Notes under the pieces: model-generated | The model's database searches: none | What the model was told of the DNA's origin: nothing | The model's input: only the letters and a program-made list of their open reading frames with translations | DNA from: an uncultured virus (IMG/VR IMGVR_UViG_3300035698_019702) | Lineage: Duplodnaviria; Heunggongvirae; Uroviricota; Caudoviricetes | Strand: one strand, 5' to 3' | IMG/VR virus record: IMGVR_UViG_3300035698_019702 | DNA: 64,000 bases | Part shown: one piece after another, positions 32,820 through 45,707 of the stretch | How the letters are laid out: every line of letters starts with the position of its first letter | Position numbering within the stretch: position 1 is the first letter of the stretch | Program-made: the position numbers and the translations under genes

Positions 32820-32832
32820 ACGGAGATTGATA

Positions 32833-35067
32833 ATGATTATCGAGACTAACGACAATAGCACTGGCGGCAAATGGACTACTGAAGAAATGCTAATGCTATA
32901 TCATCTAAAAGTTGCTAAAAACACTCATAAACAAATCACTGACATTATGGGCGAGAAGATTGGTAGGCGAGAATATAGTGAGAATCTTATTCACAAAAAA
33001 TGGCAGCAAACTGACTGGGTGAAGTTCTTAGAAGTTCAGGGAGAAAAGGAAGAACTTTTGGCCGAGATCAAAGGCCGAGAATCTGAAAAGCAGAAGGTAA
33101 TTGAGACGACTTTAAGTAACCAGGAAAGGTTGGTTAAGAGGGACCAGGCCAGAACTCAGCTCATTATAGACGCTATTCAGAGTTCTATACTCAGACTTCC
33201 GAAGCCAAAGCTCTCTGACCTGAAATATAATCCTAATCCGAAATTGACGTATAGAGATGAACATATGGGGGTAATCCTTAGCGACTTGCATTTAGGAGCA
33301 AGCTACACCAAAGAAGACACCGGTGGCTTATCGGAATTCAATATTGACATAGCCAAGAAACGACTATCCATACTACGTGACACGACTATTAGTATCGCAG
33401 AACGACATCGACACGTTTGTAATATTCCTGAACTTCATGTTTTTTGCTTAGGTGATATTGTGGCAGGAATGAATGATGCAGGCGCTTGGTCGAGTAGCTA
33501 CATTGATTTAGATATCTACGATCAAATGATTGAAGGAGCTGCAGCTTTAAGAAATGTGCTATCTACGTGGGCGAAATCGTTTGACAAGGTAAATTTCTAC
33601 GGTGTGTACGGGAACCACGGTAGGTGTTTGCCTATAACAACTAAAGTTTTAACCCCTAATGGATATAAAAACGCAAACGAAATCATCGAAGGTGACTTAG
33701 TGGGCACTCTTAATGTAGAAACAATGATGCACGAATTCCAACCAGTGCTTAGGAAGATATATATAGATAATGAACAAAATATGATTAGACACGAAAGTTC
33801 CAATTTTGTGTACGAAGCAACTGAAGACCATGACATATTATATCTTGACAAAAAGAAAAAAGTACTACGAAAAAGAAAATATAAGACACTTACTGGTATA
33901 AATGATAAATTCCCTATTCCCATTTGCTCTCCCTCGGGAATGGATGAATACGATGTTTCTGATAATGTGCTTGCTTTTCTCGGGTGGATGATGACGGATG
34001 GCCGATACCTTCCTAAATGTAAGACTTTACAAATATACCAATCTAAGCCAAAAAATGTGGATTACATAAGGCATCTTTTAGATGATTTAGAAGTTGAATA
34101 TTCTGTCAAAAGTCGAAACAGAGAAATCAAAGAGATTAAGTCCTCACTCACTTCATTTTGTTTCACTATATTCTCTTCCGATTTTACTCGGAAAATCAAA
34201 GAATACCTTCCTGTTAGAGAATCCATCCCATCATGGATGTATAAGTTATCAGACAGACAAATATCAGTGTTATTGCAACATATTGCTATGGGGGATGAGG
34301 TATTCAGGCAAAAAAGAACTCTATGTACCAGCCAAGCAAAGATCGAATGTATTTGGGGGAAAAAAGAATTTCTAGAACAATTAGCAGGGTTGTTAGCAAC
34401 ACATGGAATTGCATCTAGTATTAACATTCATAAAAACGGCAGTGATAGAGTAAACTACTATCTATATATTCGCGTCAACAGATACTACTCACTTGATACT
34501 ACAAAAACATCTAGGATTATACACAACAAGCCTGTTTGGTGTGTCGAAGTAGAGAACGGCACAATATTCGTGCTAAACGAACATGGTGATTCTTTTATTA
34601 CTGGCAACTGTGGCAAAAGAGGCAGCCATAAAGATGGTGCTAACTGGGATCGTATTTGTTACGAGTTCGTTAAGACTTCTATGTCTGAATACGACAATAT
34701 CCATTGGGAGATTCCCCGAGCTTGGTGGTTACAGAAAAAAATACAGAACCATAACTTCTACATGACTCATGGCGACGGCATTCGTGGAAGTCTAGGCGTA
34801 CCTTACTATGGTGTAGAACGAGCAGAAAGGTTGATTCTTGGTCTCATGAAAGAGAAGCCAGACTATCTGCTGTTAGGACACTTTCATACTCCAGCAGAGT
34901 TGCAGACAAACAGCGGTCGTATTTTGATGAATGGCTCGTTTATGAATGGCGACATGTACTCTTTGAGAGACCTTCGTAGAAAAGATCGAGCCGAGCAGAA
35001 ATTATTTGGTATTCACACTAAAAAAGGTGTTACATGGTCTTACAATATACAGCTTGACCAAGAATAG
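32833..35067 (+). CDS. Calcineurin-like metallophosphoesterase (phage nuclease-type) containing an intein
   Basis: SDLHLG, LGDIV, GNHG, THGD, GHFH motifs. GGAG SD before ATG 32833. Confidence 0.85.
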   Translation: MIIETNDNSTGGKWTTEEMLMLYHLKVAKNTHKQITDIMGEKIGRREYSENLIHKKWQQTDWVKFLEVQGEKEELLAEIKGRESEKQKVIETTLSNQERLVKRDQARTQLIIDAIQSSILRLPKPKLSDLKYNPNPKLTYRDEHMGVILSDLHLGASYTKEDTGGLSEFNIDIAKKRLSILRDTTISIAERHRHVCNIPELHVFCLGDIVAGMNDAGAWSSSYIDLDIYDQMIEGAAALRNVLSTWAKSFDKVNFYGVYGNHGRCLPITTKVLTPNGYKNANEIIEGDLVGTLNVETMMHEFQPVLRKIYIDNEQNMIRHESSNFVYEATEDHDILYLDKKKKVLRKRKYKTLTGINDKFPIPICSPSGMDEYDVSDNVLAFLGWMMTDGRYLPKCKTLQIYQSKPKNVDYIRHLLDDLEVEYSVKSRNREIKEIKSSLTSFCFTIFSSDFTRKIKEYLPVRESIPSWMYKLSDRQISVLLQHIAMGDEVFRQKRTLCTSQAKIECIWGKKEFLEQLAGLLATHGIASSINIHKNGSDRVNYYLYIRVNRYYSLDTTKTSRIIHNKPVWCVEVENGTIFVLNEHGDSFITGNCGKRGSHKDGANWDRICYEFVKTSMSEYDNIHWEIPRAWWLQKKIQNHNFYMTHGDGIRGSLGVPYYGVERAERLILGLMKEKPDYLLLGHFHTPAELQTNSGRILMNGSFMNGDMYSLRDLRRKDRAEQKLFGIHTKKGVTWSYNIQLDQE
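33625..34608 (+). mobile_element. Intein (328 aa) with LAGLIDADG-type endonuclease region, second motif degenerate
   Basis: GNHGR|CLPITTKVLTPNG...ATEDH...LGWMMTDGRY...VWCVEVENGT...ITGN|C. Confidence 0.9.
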
Positions 35068-37093: not shown

Positions 37094-37220
37094 TTGCTGT
37101 GGCAAACCTATGGTTGGTGGATCGGCAAAACTAGGAAGCGCAGGTTGTACATGCGCTGAGTGTAAATTGAAGATGACTAAGACTGTTGAGGAATCTGATG
37201 CTGGAATTGAGGGTAGGTAA
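37026..37220 (+). CDS. Hypothetical small Cys-rich (Zn-binding) protein
   Basis: KCSCCGKP...CTCAEC. Confidence 0.45.
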   Translation: MMIKRSNPVNQRVELGTTLLKCSCCGKPMVGGSAKLGSAGCTCAECKLKMTKTVEESDAGIEGR

Positions 37221-40200
37221 CGTATTTGTCGATATTATAGGCGACCTGAAAACTTCCCAGTGGCAAGAAATCGAGAAACAGCTTTCGTTTAGACCCCAAG
37301 GATTTAACTTCAGCCCTCTGTATAACCGTTGGATTTACAGGACTGATAAAGATGGTAAGAAGGTAAAAGTTAAGCGCATTTGGGATGGCTGGAAGCGCCA
37401 AGCCTGGAAGAATAAGAATCGTACTTACTTCCCTACTGGCTTATACTCAATAGTCGCATCTTACCTGAAGGAAGAAAACATCCCCTTCCGCGCTCGTGAT
37501 TTGCGCGTCAAACCTGAGCAGAACATTGTCTTTACCTTATCAGATGATTTTATAGAACGAGACTATCAGACCAAAGTCTGCGACGATGCTGCTAACCAAC
37601 AACGAGGTATTATTCAAGCCGCAACGGGGTCAGGAAAATGCATTCGATATGACAGCTTAGTAATAACTGACAGTGGTATCCTAACTTTTGAAGAACTTAT
37701 TGATAAAGAACTGCCTGAATGCGATCTTGATATAGGAGAATATCATAAACATAAATCTGTTATCTCTACTCCAGACTCAGAAGATGGTACTGATGTGTCA
37801 TCTTATATTTACTACGATGGGGTGGTTAAGTCTATAAAGGTAACCACTCAATCGGGATTTGAAATATGTGGTACTCCATCTCATAGAATTAAGGTATTAA
37901 CAAGTAATGGGCAACAATGGCGATGCCTCAAGGACATCGCAAAGGATGATTTTTGTGTAATATGTAAAAATCAAATGATGTTTGGGAAAGATGTCTCTTT
38001 GACCCGATCTGATGGTTATTGGATTGGTTTGCTTATTGGCGATGGGTGCTTAACTAGCAAGGTGACCGTTCGGCTCACAAACGAAGATGAACATATCATA
38101 CGTTTTGCTGAAACTTACTGTAAGGAACGAGGACTCAGACTGCACAATAGGAGTCATAAAACATCTGATAAATGTCGAGAACTGTTTATTCACAATAAAA
38201 GATATCGAGAAGAATTATATGATTTAGGCTGTGATTATTCCTTGTCGATAAACAAGGAAGTTCCTATACTAATTCGACAATCTCGGGAAGAAGTTGTTGC
38301 ATCTTTTCTGCGTGGACTATTTGAATCCGATGGATGGGTAGAAAAACATGCAGTTTGTTTAGCAACATCGTCAGAGCGTTTATCTGTGCAAGTTCAAGTT
38401 ATGCTTCTTAATTTTGGAATAGTTTCTACGCGACACGTTAGACAAACATCTTGCCACCCTTCATATCACATTTCTGTATATAGAGACTATATTCCAATCT
38501 TTGTACAGCGTATTGGGCTAGATGCTAACGGACATAAGTATCGAAAACTTAACCAAACCATGAAAGAAATGTCGCCTCAACCGAACAGTAACCTGGATGT
38601 GATACCACATCAATCACAATTTATCAAGAACAACATTTGTAGTGACCAGTTTCATTACGATGCTGTTGCAACAACAACAGACGATATGAGTAGAAATTAT
38701 GATTTTGTGGTACCTGATTCCCAATCGTTTTCTGCTCAAGGGTTTGTGAACCATAATACAGCAATTTGCGCGGCGCTGATTAAGCGACTTCAAGTATCGC
38801 CTTTCCTATTCTTTGTCACATCAATCGACCTAGCCCATCAAGCCAGGACCGAGCTACAAAAGTTCCTGCGTATCAATAGTATGCCCTTCACGGTTGGCCA
38901 AATTGGTGGAGGAGTAATTGAGTTTGGGGATGTTAACGTTTTAACTGTGCAAACAGTAGTTAGAGTCTTAGGTAAGCAATGGAACGCCAAAACCAGATTT
39001 GATAACGATGATGCTGATGATCCCACACCTATCCAAAAGCACAGGGACGAAATCTTAGAACTTTTGCATGAAGCTAAAGGTGCAATCTGTGACGAGTGTA
39101 TTAGTGGTAATAGTCTTATAGTCACTAAGAATGGTCCTGTTAAAATGAAAGATTTAAGTAATTTTATTGGGAAGAAAATTCTTAGTTTAAGTGGTAATAG
39201 TGTTGTATGGAAGAAAATAACTCATTTTTATCCTAAAGGTAAAAAAGAGACTTTGACAGTTGTCCTGTTAAATGGAAACACTATCACATGTACAAACGAT
39301 CACCCAATAATGACAAAGACAGGATGGAAACTATCAAAACAACTGAGTCAAGAAGATGCTATTTTATGCTGTGCAAATACAGGTGCAGGTGACACAAACT
39401 ATGTAGAGATTGAATCAATATCAAGAACTGGTGAGGAAGAAGTATTTGATATAACGGTAGAAGATACTCAATGCTTTTTTGCTAACAACATCCTAGTACA
39501 CAATTGCCAGCATTGGCGAGCAGATACTTGTCAATTAGTTACTAGAAACTTACCAAGTTGCTATTATATCTACGGTATGTCCGCTACTCCTTACCGAGAT
39601 GAAGGCGATGATCTAATGATTCAGGCTTGTTTTGGTAAAAAGGTAGCAGAAATTACTGCCAGTGAGCTGATTACTACTATCGATCCGACAACAGGAAACT
39701 CCTTCTTGATGAAACCGTATATTAAGATGGTCCATCTGCGTGAAAAGAAAACTCTTTACCGACAGTGGCAGTCGATCTATAAGGATCAGGTTGTCGAAAA
39801 CGAGTTCTACAACAATGCTATTGCTAACATTGCCAATGCTTATATAGAACAAGGCCGTTTATTGCTTATTCTGGTAACTCAAGTCAAGCATGGGAAATAT
39901 TTAGAGATGATGGTTCCAGGTGGACACTTCTTGTCGGGGAACAGCCCGAAGAAGAAACGTATAGAGGCAATCGATAAACTCCGCAATAAAGATATAAAAT
40001 GTATTATTAGTACGGTGATCTTTGACGAAGGTATCAACGTCAAACCCTTAGATACTTTGTTATTAGCTGGCCAGGGCAAAAGTAAGGTGAGAGCTATGCA
40101 GCGAATTGGCCGAGTTTTAAGACCGTGTGAAGGTAAGCCCAATCCTACCGTTATTGATTTTCACCTGCATCAAACATACTTAGACGTTCATGCTAAGTCA

Positions 40201-40281
40201 AGGGCAAAGATGTATGAAACTGAGCCTGAGTTCGATATCGAACATATCGATCCTGACCCAAAAAGGATTTTCACATCATGA
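37198..40281 (+). CDS. Superfamily 2 DNA helicase (UvsW/XPB-like) with two inteins
   Basis: RDYQ, AATGSGK|T, DE|CQH, GMSATPYR, FDEGINV, MQRIGRVLR. GAGGA SD before ATG 37198. Confidence 0.9.
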   Translation: MLELRVGNVFVDIIGDLKTSQWQEIEKQLSFRPQGFNFSPLYNRWIYRTDKDGKKVKVKRIWDGWKRQAWKNKNRTYFPTGLYSIVASYLKEENIPFRARDLRVKPEQNIVFTLSDDFIERDYQTKVCDDAANQQRGIIQAATGSGKCIRYDSLVITDSGILTFEELIDKELPECDLDIGEYHKHKSVISTPDSEDGTDVSSYIYYDGVVKSIKVTTQSGFEICGTPSHRIKVLTSNGQQWRCLKDIAKDDFCVICKNQMMFGKDVSLTRSDGYWIGLLIGDGCLTSKVTVRLTNEDEHIIRFAETYCKERGLRLHNRSHKTSDKCRELFIHNKRYREELYDLGCDYSLSINKEVPILIRQSREEVVASFLRGLFESDGWVEKHAVCLATSSERLSVQVQVMLLNFGIVSTRHVRQTSCHPSYHISVYRDYIPIFVQRIGLDANGHKYRKLNQTMKEMSPQPNSNLDVIPHQSQFIKNNICSDQFHYDAVATTTDDMSRNYDFVVPDSQSFSAQGFVNHNTAICAALIKRLQVSPFLFFVTSIDLAHQARTELQKFLRINSMPFTVGQIGGGVIEFGDVNVLTVQTVVRVLGKQWNAKTRFDNDDADDPTPIQKHRDEILELLHEAKGAICDECISGNSLIVTKNGPVKMKDLSNFIGKKILSLSGNSVVWKKITHFYPKGKKETLTVVLLNGNTITCTNDHPIMTKTGWKLSKQLSQEDAILCCANTGAGDTNYVEIESISRTGEEEVFDITVEDTQCFFANNILVHNCQHWRADTCQLVTRNLPSCYYIYGMSATPYRDEGDDLMIQACFGKKVAEITASELITTIDPTTGNSFLMKPYIKMVHLREKKTLYRQWQSIYKDQVVENEFYNNAIANIANAYIEQGRLLLILVTQVKHGKYLEMMVPGGHFLSGNSPKKKRIEAIDKLRNKDIKCIISTVIFDEGINVKPLDTLLLAGQGKSKVRAMQRIGRVLRPCEGKPNPTVIDFHLHQTYLDVHAKSRAKMYETEPEFDIEHIDPDPKRIFTS
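37639..38757 (+). mobile_element. Intein (373 aa) with LAGLIDADG homing endonuclease, in Walker A
   Basis: GSGK|CIRYDSLV...GTPSHRI...WIGLLIGDGCL...FLRGLFESDGWV...NYDFVV...FVNHN|T. Confidence 0.92.
39097..39504 (+). mobile_element. Mini-intein (136 aa) in Walker B
   Basis: ICDE|CISGNSLI...CTNDHPI...VFDITVE...ILVHN|CQH. Confidence 0.93.
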
Positions 40282-41702
40282 AGATGAGACGTTTCACAAA
40301 CGAACCTGATGTTTATGAGAATGATCTCTCTATACCGATCAAACGTATAGAAAAGTTACCACTTCCGTATACAGGGAACAAAAAGAAGCTGCTCTATCGT
40401 ATTCATCGAGCCATCGAAAAGCGAGGGCTTGAGTTTACTACAGTTTTAGACGCTTTCTCAGGCAGTGCGTCCGTATCAATGCTGTTCAAGTTAATGGGGA
40501 AGAGGGTAGTTGCTAATGATATATTAACATCTTCTTATCTTAACGCCGTAGCTTTTGTAGAAAACCCCGGACTAAAATTAAGCGATGAAGATAAGGACTT
40601 CCTTCTTAATAATGTCAACCCAGATAAATCAACGTTCGTAGAAGATAACTATCTTGGAGGAACAGAGTCAGATGTGCGTTTCAAGAAGTTTACTTTGAAG
40701 GAATGCCGCCAACTTGATAATTTTCGAGCTAACATAGACGATCTATGTAACTACTATCTCCAGAGCCTTAGCCTGGCTGCAAATGCAGCAGTTATTATGA
40801 GACTTCCGTTTGGAAATGTCGATGCGAGCCATGATATTCTACTCCACAGGCGTAAACAGCAAAAAACGTATGGAGAAGGAACCTCCGGGCATGACCGACG
40901 GATCGGTATTTACTATGACGATGATCTCAACCTAAAGTTTGACAAATGGTTCCGCAAATACGTAGATGACTTCACCATCGGGTGCTGTGTAGAAAAGCCA
41001 GAACCCAAAATTAAGAGGGCAACCTTTCTAGCTAATCTACAGCAACATGTACTCAGAGATTGTATGGTGCAGGGAAGAATGCATGAAGGACAGGCACTTG
41101 CTGAAATGAACGTCCGCATGGCTCATCAGAAAAACCAACTCAAAGCGTCTTGGGACAACGAGGGGTCAACTGAAATGGACTTCCACACCAAGGCAGGAAC
41201 AGGGGATATGGACGGATTGCCAGGGCAAGGTTTGAAATGGTGGACTTTCGCAGACCTGAGCATGCCCGGCGACTGCATCGCAACAAATATGGATGTCGTA
41301 GACCTTCTGGAGAGTGGACTGAAGGTTGATTGCGCGTATTTTGATCCACCTTATGGCGGACAGTCATCCGACTACGCCACTATTTATAGGTTTTTCGAGG
41401 AATTTATCTACGGACAACCAATGGAGGATTTGCCTCATTTACAGAGAGCAAAAACGTTCGTAGGTAAACGAGACTACGAGGAATATTTCCTCAAGATGCT
41501 CAATGCGGCGAATCACATACCGATATGGCTTTTCTCATACAATGACACCTCCTGGAGGGATATCAACTACATCGTTGAGTTGATCAAACAGTTTAGAGCC
41601 GATGTCGATGTTGAAGTATTATCCGATGAGTACCGATATCTTTATAGACGGCAACAAGGCAGAACTGAACGGAGTTCTGAATACCTGATTGTTGCACAAT
41701 GA
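40278..41702 (+). CDS. Adenine-specific DNA methyltransferase (D12/alpha-class, extended)
   Basis: PYTGNKKKLL, LDAFSGSASVS, VAND, YFDPPY, WLFSYN. Confidence 0.85.
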   Translation: MKMRRFTNEPDVYENDLSIPIKRIEKLPLPYTGNKKKLLYRIHRAIEKRGLEFTTVLDAFSGSASVSMLFKLMGKRVVANDILTSSYLNAVAFVENPGLKLSDEDKDFLLNNVNPDKSTFVEDNYLGGTESDVRFKKFTLKECRQLDNFRANIDDLCNYYLQSLSLAANAAVIMRLPFGNVDASHDILLHRRKQQKTYGEGTSGHDRRIGIYYDDDLNLKFDKWFRKYVDDFTIGCCVEKPEPKIKRATFLANLQQHVLRDCMVQGRMHEGQALAEMNVRMAHQKNQLKASWDNEGSTEMDFHTKAGTGDMDGLPGQGLKWWTFADLSMPGDCIATNMDVVDLLESGLKVDCAYFDPPYGGQSSDYATIYRFFEEFIYGQPMEDLPHLQRAKTFVGKRDYEEYFLKMLNAANHIPIWLFSYNDTSWRDINYIVELIKQFRADVDVEVLSDEYRYLYRRQQGRTERSSEYLIVAQ

Positions 41703-41704
41703 CA

Positions 41705-42165
41705 TACTATTGAGACAGGTTTCTGAGCACCGTCCCCTGACAGTAATGACGGGATCGTTGGCATTTCAGATAGCGATATCTGGGCACCTATGTCTAGAAA
41801 CTTGGTGACGATATAGCCCGAGAGAAAACTCGTACAAAACAGGAGCTTATAAGGGGCGAGCGCCTTACCAGCGCTTGGAGTAGGCCCTGAAATCCCGGCA
41901 ATGGGTGAGTAGTTGTCTCACGTTACACGGCGACATCCTGGGTCCAATGTGGTTAAGAATGAGTCTCCTATCTACTTCACTATTCTCAATGGGTTTAACT
42001 CTGAATATGTGGAAATGAGTATGAAAGTGATCATCTTGTACCCGGACGCTCTTGGGTTGGTCTGCCACCTGGCGGATTAACCCGTGTGTTCGGGAACTAC
42101 GGATGAGGATTACTCAACCACAAGGAATGCCGTTGCGCGAATTGGGTCTGTGGATTCTTTTGTTT
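41705..42165 (+). ncRNA. Candidate large structured non-coding RNA (family not recognised)
   Basis: Only long non-coding gap in the window, GC-elevated. Many stems with G-U pairs on the + strand, two GNRA loops and long-range helices (see findings). Confidence 0.55.
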
Positions 42166-42205
42166 AAGGGGTGGTTTCGTTGAGGGAGTTGGTGGCTGAT
42201 CCGCT

Positions 42206-42221
42206 GTATAATAGAGCTATG
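42206..42221 (+). promoter_or_regulatory. Putative -10 element (GTATAATAGAG) 6 nt before ATG 42219
   Basis: Identical 11-mer and near-identical spacing to the 29200 site. Confidence 0.45.
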
Positions 42222-43025
42222 AATGATACTGATCTGATACTTTCTGCTCTACAGATGGGTGCACCCCCGAAGCGTAAGCAAGGTCGGATGAAGCCGATTT
42301 TCGAGTCTGGGTTTACTGTAGGGCCTGACCCGATTTTCAGGGTTTCTCGGACGAAGTGCTCTACTCCTAAGAGGGGGAAGAGTATCGCCGCATGGGCGTC
42401 TGTCGATTTTGTGCGATATTTTCGGCAATGCTTGTCGCATTTTGGGATCGAGCCTGATCTGGTCGAAACCAGGGACTCGGACGGGGCTAAGAAGATCTAC
42501 GATATGTTTGTAGATGAGTTAGGCGGTAGCATGACTAACTATGTTTTGCGCGACTATATCGATTGGTGGGTAGGTATATATGCAATTGCCAGGGCTTCTC
42601 GACCAATCGGTGTCTTCAGCCTGATACGAGAAAAGGATATTCTTAGGTTTCTCAAACAGTATGATCGCAATCTTGCCACTACTCCACGGAGTTTAGATCA
42701 ACCGGTTCAGACGGCTGAGATAACCCCAGGAGAACTTTATAGCATGTCCGGCATTAGTCTGGTGGTAATGGGCTACGGAATCGTGGAGGCGTATAAAGTC
42801 CTTGTTGCTGGTGGGGAGAAGAACGTCTATGCTCAGTTATCAGATGTTTTGAAAGGTTATTCCAAGCAGGTCTTGACGAAAGTTATTGACATTACTGTTG
42901 CAAAACGGTATAATAAGAAGGATGTTGTGGACTTCATGTCGGTTGCTCGACCTGCATTGAAGTTCCACGGTGTAGAGAAGCAGTTTGACCATCTCGATTA
43001 TACCCGATATTTTATGGAGGGATAA
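42219..43025 (+). CDS. Hypothetical protein at the head of the replication cluster
   Basis: ORF open from 42171; ATG 42219 preferred. Confidence 0.65.
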   Translation: MNDTDLILSALQMGAPPKRKQGRMKPIFESGFTVGPDPIFRVSRTKCSTPKRGKSIAAWASVDFVRYFRQCLSHFGIEPDLVETRDSDGAKKIYDMFVDELGGSMTNYVLRDYIDWWVGIYAIARASRPIGVFSLIREKDILRFLKQYDRNLATTPRSLDQPVQTAEITPGELYSMSGISLVVMGYGIVEAYKVLVAGGEKNVYAQLSDVLKGYSKQVLTKVIDITVAKRYNKKDVVDFMSVARPALKFHGVEKQFDHLDYTRYFMEG

Positions 43026-43034
43026 CAAGTACGC

Positions 43035-43520
43035 ATGAGTGTAGGAACTACGTTCAGGAAAGATGTTTTTGTAGTAGATGAGGACGGGAATAACTTGGGC
43101 TCTATGCCCTTTCCTGATGCCAGGAGATTGGCATCAGAATCGAACCTTGACTTGGTCGAAGTCGGCAAGCAAGGTAAAGACCCAGTTTATCGGATTATGG
43201 ATGAGGGAAAGTGGAAGTATGAGCAGAAAAAGCGTGCTCACAAAAACAAGCAGCATTCGCTTCCTCTTAAAGAGATGCGATTTCGATTGGGAATCGATTC
43301 TCACGATCAGGCGACTAAATTAGGAAAAATCAGGAAGTTCCTAGACAAGGGGCACAGCGTTAAGTTGTTGGTCCAATTGCGAGGTAGAGAAAAAGCAACC
43401 CCTGACTTGGCAAATCAGAAGTTATCCTCTATAATAACTGAGATTGGAGATGTGAAACAAGACCAGGTGAAACGTTCACAGGGTCAGGTGCATGTTATTG
43501 TACATCCTAGTCGAAATTAA
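43035..43520 (+). CDS. infC: Translation initiation factor IF-3
   Basis: VFVVDEDGNNLG...ARRLA...LDLVEV...RIMDEGKWKYEQKK...KEMRFRLGIDSHD...KFLDKGHSVK...RGRE. Confidence 0.92.
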   Translation: MSVGTTFRKDVFVVDEDGNNLGSMPFPDARRLASESNLDLVEVGKQGKDPVYRIMDEGKWKYEQKKRAHKNKQHSLPLKEMRFRLGIDSHDQATKLGKIRKFLDKGHSVKLLVQLRGREKATPDLANQKLSSIITEIGDVKQDQVKRSQGQVHVIVHPSRN

Positions 43521-43541: not shown

Positions 43542-45707
43542 ATGAGTCAGGAAATAACCCTTACCACTAAGGCGAGGAAAGAGTATCGACAACAACTACT
43601 GGCTTTAGGTGATGGCCATATCGGTCGTGAACTCTTTTACCATATCAAAAGTAGATATCGTATACTGTATATCCGTAGTCCTGAAGAGCGAAGAGTCATC
43701 AGTGCCTTCAAGCTGGTTGCCTACTCTGAGGGTTCTAGTTTGTTTCATTGGGATTTCAGTAGAGGCATGTTGGATGCTTTTACGATGCAACAAACCTCAG
43801 CAGAAGATAGTGAGGTGCATAGCGATGCTGAAGCTGCCCTACATTATATCATAGATCAGGCTAAATCGGCTAATGAAAAGACTCCGGCAACCGGTGGTTC
43901 AATCTTTATGTTGCTGGACTTTCATCATTTTTTGGAAGGTGCACCAGTAATCGAGCGTCTTTTCAAAGAGTTTGCCAGTTTCACGTCAATATGTTATATT
44001 GTGATTGTTTCGCCAGTGTTTGTTTGCCCGGTAGCATTGGAGAAGGAATTCACTCTCATTGATTTTCCTCCACCATCTCGCGAAGAAGTCGAAGTTTCTT
44101 TCACGAAGATGTGCAAGCATATTCCTGCCCGTTTCCCAGATGCCTTGAAGTCTGCCAGGGATAATCGAGAAGAGATATTGCATTCCACGACCGGGTTGAC
44201 TATCACCGAGGCAGAGAACGCTTACGCCAAGTCGCTAGTCAAGACGAAAACATTTGATATTCCCACTATCCTTGACGAGAAGAAGCAGATTATCCGCAAG
44301 GGAGGTATCTTGGAATACAGGGATAGTAGGTTCTCGTTTGATCAAATAGGTGGGCTAGATCATCTGAAAGAATGGTTGGGTATGCGCCGATTGGCTTTCA
44401 AATCTGATGCTCGTGACTTTGGGTTGGACAGTCCCAAAGGGGTTCTCCTTGTGGGTATACCTGGTTGTGTTTTGGGTGATACAAAAATCAGAGTAAAAAA
44501 AATTTCTGATGAAGATAAGGAACAGGAAATTGCGATAGAAGAGTTTTTTACTTTATGCGAAGAAGGTGGCTTCTATCAAGTTGAGACACCTGATGGATGG
44601 CAAGATATTGGAAGTTTAGTACGGAAGCGGAATAAAGAGTGTTATAATTTGATTCTGGAAAATGGTCGAGAGCTGGGGTGTTCGTTTGATCACTATGTTT
44701 GGGTGACAGATGATGTTAGTGATCCGTTTTCCTATGTGTGGAAACGGGCCGAAGATATTGACATACGAACCGATCTAGTACTCGTGAGAGCTGGTGTTGA
44801 ATGTTATGACACGGGATGGGAAAGGGTTATAGCTAAGGAGTATGTTGGAGAAAAAGACACTTTTGACCTGGAAGTAAAAAATCTAAATCATAGGTACTAT
44901 ACGAACGGTATTCTATCTCACAACACAGGAAAATCTATGATCTCGGATGCGGTAGGAGTACAGTTTGGGATGCCGCTTCTGAGACTAGACATTGGAGCTT
45001 TGTTCTCTGCTCATATCGGAGAAAGTGAAGAGAATACCAGGCTTGCCATTCAGACAGCAGAAGCCATTGCTCCGTGTGTTCTTTGGATTGACGAAATTGA
45101 AAAAGGTATTGGTGGTGTCCAGAGTTCTAATGCTACCGATGGTGGTGTAACTAACAGAGTCTTTGGGACTTTGTTAACGTGGATGCAAGAAAAGGAAGCA
45201 CCAGTTTTTGTTATTGCTACGGCAAATAACCTTAACGGTATTCCACCTGAGTTCCAGAGGGCAGGCCGGTTTGATGAAATCTTTTTTCTTGACTTACCTG
45301 ATAAAGATCAGCGTATCGAGGTTACGGAAGTTCTGCTGAAGCGCAAAAGTCGAGACCCGGCCGATTTCGATTTGGAACAAATTGCTATTGCCGCAGAGAA
45401 TTATAGCCCCGCGGAAATTGAAAAAGGAATAAATAATGCGCTATTCCTCGCATTTCAAAGAGAGGGAGATCGCAAGGTGACCACTCAGGATATTGTTAGT
45501 GAGATAGGGAGATTCCAACCATTGTATAATACAAGGTATGAGGAAATTGCCGACATGCGTGAATGGGCTAAAGGCAAAGACGGCAAGGGTGGTCGCGCCC
45601 GCCTCGCCAATTCTTCTGGTTCAGGAAAATCATATGCTGTTGCAGCCCACGATCGTACCTTTGATTTGGCTGGTGATCTGGGAGATTTGACGGAAGAAGA
45701 CTTATGA
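43542..45707 (+). CDS. Ycf46-like AAA+ ATPase with intein
   Basis: EERRVI, LLDFHHFL, EKKQIIRKGGILEY, IGGLDHLKEWL, GIPG|TGKS, VLWIDEIEKG, LLTWMQEK, RAGRFDEIFFLDLP. Confidence 0.9.
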   Translation: MSQEITLTTKARKEYRQQLLALGDGHIGRELFYHIKSRYRILYIRSPEERRVISAFKLVAYSEGSSLFHWDFSRGMLDAFTMQQTSAEDSEVHSDAEAALHYIIDQAKSANEKTPATGGSIFMLLDFHHFLEGAPVIERLFKEFASFTSICYIVIVSPVFVCPVALEKEFTLIDFPPPSREEVEVSFTKMCKHIPARFPDALKSARDNREEILHSTTGLTITEAENAYAKSLVKTKTFDIPTILDEKKQIIRKGGILEYRDSRFSFDQIGGLDHLKEWLGMRRLAFKSDARDFGLDSPKGVLLVGIPGCVLGDTKIRVKKISDEDKEQEIAIEEFFTLCEEGGFYQVETPDGWQDIGSLVRKRNKECYNLILENGRELGCSFDHYVWVTDDVSDPFSYVWKRAEDIDIRTDLVLVRAGVECYDTGWERVIAKEYVGEKDTFDLEVKNLNHRYYTNGILSHNTGKSMISDAVGVQFGMPLLRLDIGALFSAHIGESEENTRLAIQTAEAIAPCVLWIDEIEKGIGGVQSSNATDGGVTNRVFGTLLTWMQEKEAPVFVIATANNLNGIPPEFQRAGRFDEIFFLDLPDKDQRIEVTEVLLKRKSRDPADFDLEQIAIAAENYSPAEIEKGINNALFLAFQREGDRKVTTQDIVSEIGRFQPLYNTRYEEIADMREWAKGKDGKGGRARLANSSGSGKSYAVAAHDRTFDLAGDLGDLTEEDL
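44466..44924 (+). mobile_element. Mini-intein (153 aa) in Walker A
   Basis: GIPG|CVLGDTKI...CSFDH...TFDLEV...YYTNGILSHN|TGKS. Confidence 0.93.

Follow-up and report, generated by a model that had tools for sequence, protein, structure and literature searches.

Large RNAs with complex folds are rare and, to our knowledge, their classes are almost without exception ribozymes, riboswitches, cores of RNA-protein particles or unexpected RNA-only assemblies. GOLLD and ROOL are reported to be phage-associated and to form RNA-only complexes (PMC12286853). We analysed a 64,000-nucleotide (nt) stretch of DNA from the uncultured virus IMGVR_UViG_3300035698_019702 (the window), whose + strand carries, from 41703 to ~42133, an element that we read, with a probability of roughly 60%, as the gene for a structured RNA of ~430 nt that belongs to an undescribed family and is made as a separate product. 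The element resembles GOLLD, ROOL and OLE in being a large multi-helix noncoding RNA (ncRNA) with a pseudoknot, encoded by a phage and recognisable by comparative analysis only; it differs from them in its shorter length, in the absence of matches to their Rfam models and in the lack of tRNA genes in the window. An earlier sequence-only reading of this DNA had cited GOLLD and ROOL as precedents, and of that comparison the analogy is retained, whereas their models do not match.

The gap that holds the element (41703-42170) is flanked on its 5' side by a methyltransferase gene and on its 3' side by a gene of the P0002 protein family, which the IF3 gene follows. Its G+C content is 48.5%, against 41.5% for the window. 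It had been described as about 500 nt without a credible open reading frame (ORF), and this held: no + strand ORF of at least 100 amino acids (aa) lies between 41702 and 42171, and the longest + strand ORF overlapping the gap, flanking genes excluded, has 55 aa. An alternative genetic code is out as well, since TAA, TAG and TGA are each present in every frame of the gap and all break it. The insertions and deletions that separate the gap from its homologue in the contig L001, the closest relative, measure 1, 2, 4, 5 and 8 nt and are not multiples of three. We thus recovered neither a protein-coding gene nor a pseudogene, there being no open frame in the gap and no frame preserved among relatives. 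ORFs of 76-95 aa fill both of the window's remaining ~500-nt gaps, so that this one is the sole long ORF-free gap. The family alignment places the start of the downstream gene at the ATG at 42219, although its ORF is listed from 42171, and the gap is therefore probably ~516 nt long.

Conservation and covariation of the element

The search with the methyltransferase led to one IMG/VR contig, L001. The downstream protein gave 8 close clusters in a set of 5.8 billion proteins, and their alignment led to 10 metagenome loci. L003 turned out to be the window's own sequence, L005 and L001 represent one and the same region, L008 and L009 do not differ across the element, and L012, with 10 nt of upstream sequence only, is uninformative on the element. 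Homologues of the gap were found by blastn and nhmmer directly 5' of a P0002 homologue in L001/L005, L007, L006, L011 and L008/L009. The element is thus present in 5 distinct full-length sequences and 1 partial sequence, every one of them on a metagenome phage contig, with the same strand and the same downstream gene in 6/6 cases. The partial one, L006, retains just the 3' part, 124 nt that reach the contig end. The blastn match to L007 had an expectation value (E) of 4.7e-37, and the nhmmer matches outside the set used to build the profile had values of 3.7e-13 (L006), 4.6e-12 (L011) and 1.3e-6 (L008). In L011 and L008 the flanking P0002 protein is just 30-38% identical, and the core RNA blocks are still recognisable there.

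The window shares long near-identical blocks with L001 (41705-65, 41815-905, 41925-75 and 42105-40), and the sequences at 41766-805 and 41990-42100 are replaced in L001 by unrelated sequence of other length. Further searches added no member. We obtained no match by blastn of 41600-42300 against 50,697 phage records, and two degenerate DNA patterns returned 7 (viral contigs), 38 (species genomes) and 7 (viral contigs) loci, among which nhmmer recognised no new homologue; the best new match of these scans (L034, E 0.001) spans just the pattern itself. With a protein as guide, three more scans of viral contigs recovered the already known contig only.

In the distant members L011 and L008, the 5' part and the two strands of K1 are misaligned by MAFFT, so that helices Ha, Pz, K1, Px and Py could be counted only from manually set coordinates. 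We thus fixed 11 helices (52 pairs) by coordinates in the 5 full-length sequences, relative to invariant anchors, and a script counted the pairs from these coordinates. The parts of the element are as follows, the counts being of cells, that is, pairs over sequences.

41703-41729, + strand: 5' leader, beginning right after the methyltransferase stop; its 6-nt motif 41718-23 is invariant in 5/5 sequences
41730-41752, + strand: hairpin Ha (41730-34/41748-52); 25/25 cells paired, 4/5 pairs change on both sides
41762-66/42125-29, + strand: long-range helix Pz, closing the RNA body; 24/25 cells, 2 pairs change on both sides
41767-41807, + strand: hairpins Hb1 (41767-72/41777-82, GNRA loop) and Hb2 (41785-88/41804-07), with compensatory changes
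41819-41832, + strand: hairpin Hc (41819-22/41829-32); 20/20 cells, stem invariant, loop varying in sequence and length
41841-45/41965-69, + strand: pseudoknot K1; 25/25 cells paired
41853-41888, + strand: candidate helix P4 (41853-56/41885-88) around Hd; 19/20 cells paired, nearly invariant, weakly supported
41857-63/41871-77, + strand: hairpin Hd; 2 pairs change on both sides, and L011 and L008 have a much longer version
41879-83/41972-76, + strand: pseudoknot K2; 23/25 cells, 2 pairs change on both sides
41894-41905, + strand: hairpin He, with a GNRA loop in the window; inner three pairs kept, 1 pair changes on both sides
41906-41920, + strand: hairpin Hf (41906-09/41917-20); 20/20 cells, 4/4 pairs change on both sides
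41927-30/42130-33, + strand: candidate helix Px, invariant in 5/5, crossing Pz
41948-54/42116-22, + strand: long-range helix Py; 33/35 cells, 2 pairs change on both sides, also predicted by RNAalifold
41965-41976, + strand: 3' strands of K1 (41965-69) and K2 (41972-76)
41977-42115, + strand: variable domain, in the window a small hairpin and a long imperfect hairpin that includes a 13-bp (base-pair) stem; length and sequence differ among relatives
42116-42133, + strand: contiguous 3' strands of Py, Pz and Px, the most conserved block

Canonical pairs filled 247 of the 260 cells, and 18 of the 52 pairs changed on both sides while remaining paired in at least 4/5 sequences. When the 3' partner was slid by 1-3 nt, 99-124 cells were canonical and 1-3 pairs changed on both sides. 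The best supported helices were Hf, Ha and Pz, the last of which shows four different strand pairs among the 5 sequences, followed by Hd, K2, Py (which has no bulge) and K1. In K1 we observed one change on both sides (L008) and one from A-U to G-U (L007); K2 can extend to 41877-84/41971-78 in the window and requires a register shift of 2 nt in L007. The loop of Hf is nearly invariant and measures 7 nt (8 nt in L007). Hb1 and Hb2 are restricted to the window, L001 and L007, being absent from L011 and L008, and the helix closing the variable domain (42035-40/42108-13) is kept in the same three sequences. Other salt-lake runs showed two variants only, 41742 A>C in the loop of Ha and 41774 C>T, which affects the second base of the Hb1 loop and leaves it GNRA.

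The same signal was recovered from a MAFFT alignment (A8) that allows a count of 6 helices (26 pairs) independent of the coordinates set for the distant members. Here 91.5% of the cells were paired (36-47% when slid), 8 pairs changed on both sides (0-2 when slid) and the covariation score was 0.346 (0.035-0.127 when slid). None of 500 shuffles reached the observed percentage of paired cells, the observed number of cells changed on both sides or the observed covariation score, 33/500 reached the number of pairs changed on both sides and 85/500 the number of further pair types. This count agrees with that based on coordinates.

The proposal of a large, structured + strand ncRNA was thus borne out by its conservation in related phages and by a covariation far above the slid and shuffled controls. 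Both pseudoknots that had been suggested (41841-45/41965-69 and 41877-84/41971-78) show compensatory changes. The nine helices that had been drawn by eye were scored in the window and its relatives L001 and L007, and also across the full set of five sequences; they fared unequally, about half being in error or restricted to a lineage. We recovered 41730-34/41748-52, 41767-72/41777-82 and 41857-63/41871-77 in full, together with the inner three of the four pairs of 41894-97/41902-05, whose outer pair is broken in 3/5 sequences. The 13-bp hairpin at 42054-83 is real in the window (13/13 pairs) and specific to it (4/13 in L001, 6/13 in L007). The remaining four are not conserved, with paired positions in the window, L001 and L007 of 7/7, 6/7 and 2/7 (41711-17/41914-20), 7/7, 2/7 and 3/7 (41718-24/41796-802), 7/7, 5/7 and 4/7 (41936-43/42040-46) and 8/8, 6/8 and 3/8 (41956-64/41979-86). 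The 3' strand of the first of these belongs instead to the covarying hairpin Hf.

GNRA loops had been reported and are present (41773-76 and 41898-901). Over the 11 helices, G-U cells outnumber A-C cells by 13 to 3 which, together with the orientation of the genes (every long ORF of the 64 kb lies on the + strand), speaks for a + strand RNA, in line with the earlier argument from the G-U pairs.

Pz surrounds almost the entire RNA. Inside Py lie the variable domain and the 3' strands of both K1 and K2, whose 5' strands precede Py; the two pairings therefore cross it, and K2 crosses K1 and P4 as well. Helices that all display compensatory change (K1 or K2 together with Py) make at least one pseudoknot necessary. 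The comparison shows a multi-pseudoknot fold with conserved unpaired junctions, and the contiguity of the 3' strands of Py, Pz and Px at 42116-33 suggests a stacked three-helix core. We found no partner for the invariant motif 41718-23; its pairing with the tail or with 41889-93 is not conserved and was dropped. A kissing interaction between the Hf loop and the 5' leader was likewise dropped, being complementary in the window and L011 but broken in L001 and L008. A possible likeness of 41829-45 to the 3' end of 16S ribosomal RNA was abandoned, no small-subunit ribosomal RNA model having matched.

A decayed gene or neutral spacer, without function and with helices that arose by chance, would fit the small number of sequences and a whole-region folding energy that is not significant. 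It would not explain the presence of near-identical blocks where the flanking protein is 30-66% identical, compensatory changes far above controls, or variable parts that have been swapped for other hairpins rather than decaying, and we consider it very improbable.

Relation to described RNA families

Rfam 15 comprises 4227 models, including GOLLD, ROOL, OLE, raiA, HEARO, RNase P, tmRNA, group I and II introns, the L20 leader and riboswitches, and none of them matched the window at the gathering score. When the threshold was relaxed to E <= 10 over 41500-42400 (901 nt), the sole match was a 17-bit gammaretrovirus signal lying mostly in the upstream gene; in L007, L011, L008 and L001 the same threshold gave 3 weak matches, none within the element body. 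The nearest of the weak matches, to a small nucleolar RNA model (L008 1367-1449), scored 24 bits against a gathering score of 50 and extends over the promoter region into the 5' leader, of which it includes the first ~30 nt. ARAGORN detected 0 tRNA or tmRNA genes in the window. The sequence-only reading had not recognised the family, and the Rfam search agrees with it. The newness would lie at the level of the RNA family, as judged from a small sample of sequences; a word search of the literature, limited in extent and not such as to establish the element as unpublished, returned no description of it.

The closest topological parallel is the core of group I introns (RF00028), in which helices likewise cross, a helical domain lies between them and a variable domain lies inside the second. 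K1 and Py cross like P3 and P7, and their strands and the hairpins between them succeed one another (K1 5', multi-hairpin domain, Py 5', K1 3', variable domain, Py 3') in the group I order P3-[P4-P6]-P7-P3'-P8-P7', the correspondence being one of topology only. A free-standing ribozyme derived from group I introns or convergent with them would account for this order, and an HNH endonuclease gene adjoins the element in L011. However, the Rfam group I model gave nothing even at E <= 10, either on the 901 nt or in the 4 homologues, the element has neither exons nor splice-site helices, and the strand preceding Py 3', the counterpart of J8/7, differs between lineages, so that this junction is not conserved. 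Together with the completeness of the methyltransferase, the differing frames of the flanking genes and the occurrence of the downstream gene without the element, these observations make such a ribozyme a remote prospect. We give somewhat more room, while still considering it doubtful, to the wider idea of an RNA with a group I-like core and without exons, acting as a free-standing ribozyme or as the RNA subunit of a complex with the adjacent protein, which alongside IF3 would redirect host translation or start replication.

An intron in the usual sense was rejected. The genes on either side are complete and independent, the frame of one relative to the other varies from locus to locus (the same in the window and L007, different in L001, L011 and L008) and the downstream gene occurs alone in L004. 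A group II intron was rejected as well, RF00029 being without match and no reverse transcriptase being found among the neighbours scanned.

Separate RNA, leader or origin

The strongest competitor of a separate RNA is a 5' leader that acts in cis on the downstream operon (P0002-family protein, IF3 and AAA+ ATPase); translation or read-through would be controlled by its binding of a small ligand or of a protein, perhaps IF3 or the downstream protein itself. Two features immediately 3' of the element bear on this choice.

42207-42212, + strand: -10-like hexamer between the RNA and the downstream gene, invariant
42219-43025, + strand: gene of the P0002-family protein, which follows the RNA in 6/6 examples

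The hexamer is present in 5/6 RNA-bearing sequences (window, L001, L007, L006 and L011) and in the element-free L004. In L004 and L006 it stands in a different frame, with respect to the downstream gene, from that of the window, L001 and L007; being read in different frames, it is conserved as DNA, and most simply it is probably the downstream gene's own promoter. A consensus scan found no two-hexamer promoter in the window, the spacing to a -35-like site being too long. In L008 the hexamer is absent, a sigma-70 match of 11/12 ends ~7 nt 5' of the element, and 19 nt, which include a ribosome-binding site, separate the element's 3' strand from the start codon. As read from these sequences, the arrangement would fit a separate RNA in five of them and a leader in one.

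The leader would thus explain the position of the element in L008, just 3' of a promoter and just 5' of a ribosome-binding site and start, as well as its constant place directly 5' of the same gene on the same strand (6/6) and the absence of a convincing intrinsic terminator after it. It is difficult to reconcile with the hexamer between element and start codon in 5/6 sequences, which in its differing frames points to a separate promoter, with the occurrence of the same gene family without the element in L004 and L010, and with a size of ~430 nt and several pseudoknots that far exceeds known protein-binding operators. The L20 leader lies upstream of infC in Bacillota, and such leaders of infC operons are, like the element, structured RNAs on the same strand upstream of an operon containing IF3, the element in L008 lying between promoter and first gene. 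They differ from it in size (the element is four to five times larger), in the unrelated gene that here precedes IF3 and in the separate promoter-like site of most loci, and neither the L20 leader model nor any riboswitch model of Rfam matches. We thus consider a leader possible, though unlikely.

The genes of the region also raise the question of a replication origin, of which the element would be a part, either as a structured transcript that primes or activates replication or as a folded single DNA strand bound by neighbouring replication proteins. ColE1 RNA II is a structured replication primer, and the likeness would be that of a folded RNA of a few hundred nt encoded in a replication region; neither an origin nor an antisense regulator nor a site for an RNA-DNA hybrid is in evidence here. 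The element does sit in a replication module (helicases, exonuclease, DnaC-like loader and DnaB), and the downstream protein gave weak, non-significant leads to DnaD-type proteins and helicase loaders.

The P0002 family comprises 137 clusters at 50% identity (E <= 0.001), and sequence searches of Pfam, PHROG and PDB with the protein gave no match. A first model had a mean confidence score (pLDDT, predicted local distance difference test) of 59.6, and Foldseek found nothing with it. A second one (AlphaFold, 43 sequences) reached 87.4 and shows a helical body and a basic, low-confidence N-terminal part; Foldseek again found nothing at E <= 0.001. The best VIA Z of the model was 5.5, within noise for helical proteins, and the DnaD-domain chain 2i5u, aligned over 75 residues with P0002 residues ~81-164, gave a noise-level Z of 5.0. 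The nearest named Atlas clusters were of helicase-loader or DnaD-like proteins, with scores of 0.85-0.89 that are noise-level leads too. On the predicted model, the protein may have an undescribed fold. The leads keep the origin alive at low odds, and it is opposed by their noise level, by a G+C content above the genome average, and by pseudoknots, GNRA loops and 13 G-U cells that suit an RNA fold better than DNA hairpins; neither iterons nor an AT-rich unwinding region were seen, no test of composition or skew having been made. We thus regard an origin as quite unlikely, slightly less so than the free-standing ribozyme.

We therefore prefer the reading of the element as a separate RNA, neither leader nor intron, which would sometimes be co-transcribed. 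In the window it would be transcribed with the methyltransferase gene or just after it, and in L008 it would come from its own promoter. Its body is closed by 41762-66/42125-29 and contains the hairpins, with Py around the variable domain and the crossing pairings K1 and K2. Judging from position only, the RNA would probably act, as a folded RNA or an RNA-protein particle, with the protein encoded immediately downstream. The setting would be that of an early module for replication and translation takeover (helicases, IF3, AAA+ ATPase, DnaB loader and DnaB helicase).

Several observations weigh against this reading. Its support comes from 5 full sequences in three lineages, and their relatedness inflates the covariation counts. 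The helices were chosen by eye before counting, for which the slid controls correct partly. Hc and Px never vary and P4 hardly does, so that covariation neither supports nor refutes them. The folding energy of 41703-42170 is not significantly different from that of shuffled sequences (z = -1.57 for the + strand and -0.97 for the - strand), and the shuffle comparison that had been proposed for the ncRNA is thus neutral; the distal domain 41977-42115 has z = -5.25, exceptional only in the window's version. We found neither a promoter nor a terminator for the RNA in the window, and the absence of both between the element and the downstream gene in L008 fits a leader. The DNA of the window recurs in 18 runs, all of them of DNA from salt-lake metagenomes, with 0 RNA runs. 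The suggested partnership with the downstream protein has adjacency as its sole basis, and in L004 and L010 the P0002 gene lies behind another ORF, with no element.

The element combines conserved junctions and at least two crossing pairings with a place in the early module of a clade of huge phages that have their own IF3. A stand-alone RNA, if confirmed, would add a new class to a short list and offer a structure target of ~430 nt; an RNA working with the neighbouring protein, if true, would be a new phage RNA-protein machine.

Two further observations concern the hexamer. It stops 6 nt short of the ATG at which the downstream gene probably starts (42207-42221), so that the mRNA may be leaderless or nearly so. 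IF3 discriminates against leaderless mRNAs, and a possible leaderless mRNA is of note beside a phage IF3 gene. In L004 (~330-395), a short upstream ORF includes the hexamer and its stop overlaps the GTG start of the P0002 homologue.

Neighbouring genes

The order methyltransferase, element, P0002-family protein, IF3 and AAA+ ATPase is shared by the window, L007, L011 and L008. The other features of the window mentioned here are the following.

1064-29130, + strand: three consecutive giant ORFs (2761, 2561 and 3168 aa)
40278-41702, + strand: gene of a D12-class N6-adenine DNA methyltransferase, complete and with its own stop; DPPY motif and C-terminal part present
43035-43520, + strand: IF3 gene with both domains; same position kept in L011 and L008

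The proteins encoded in the window include those of intein-bearing helicase and AAA+ genes, IF3, a DnaC-like loader, the DnaB helicase and an exonuclease. This gene content (giant ORFs, helicases, IF3, loader and DnaB) indicates a huge phage.

The methyltransferase is 68-84% identical among the 5 loci and is conserved far better than the gene 3' of the RNA. Its Pfam profile covers the N-terminal part only, and ~200 residues between the N-terminal D12 region and the DPPY motif are without Pfam profile match. GATC is the usual target of Dam-type enzymes and occurs twice inside the element (41753-56 and 42037-40), beside this D12-class gene; the first site is not kept in L011 and L008.

The HNH endonuclease gene of L011 (2009-2527) lies between the methyltransferase gene and the element, in this locus only, and likely encodes a free-standing homing endonuclease. 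In the window, intein splicing domains were found in the helicase and AAA+ ATPase genes, and LAGLIDADG domains in the helicase and in an exonuclease-like ORF (37186-40281, 43542-45707 and 32827-35067).

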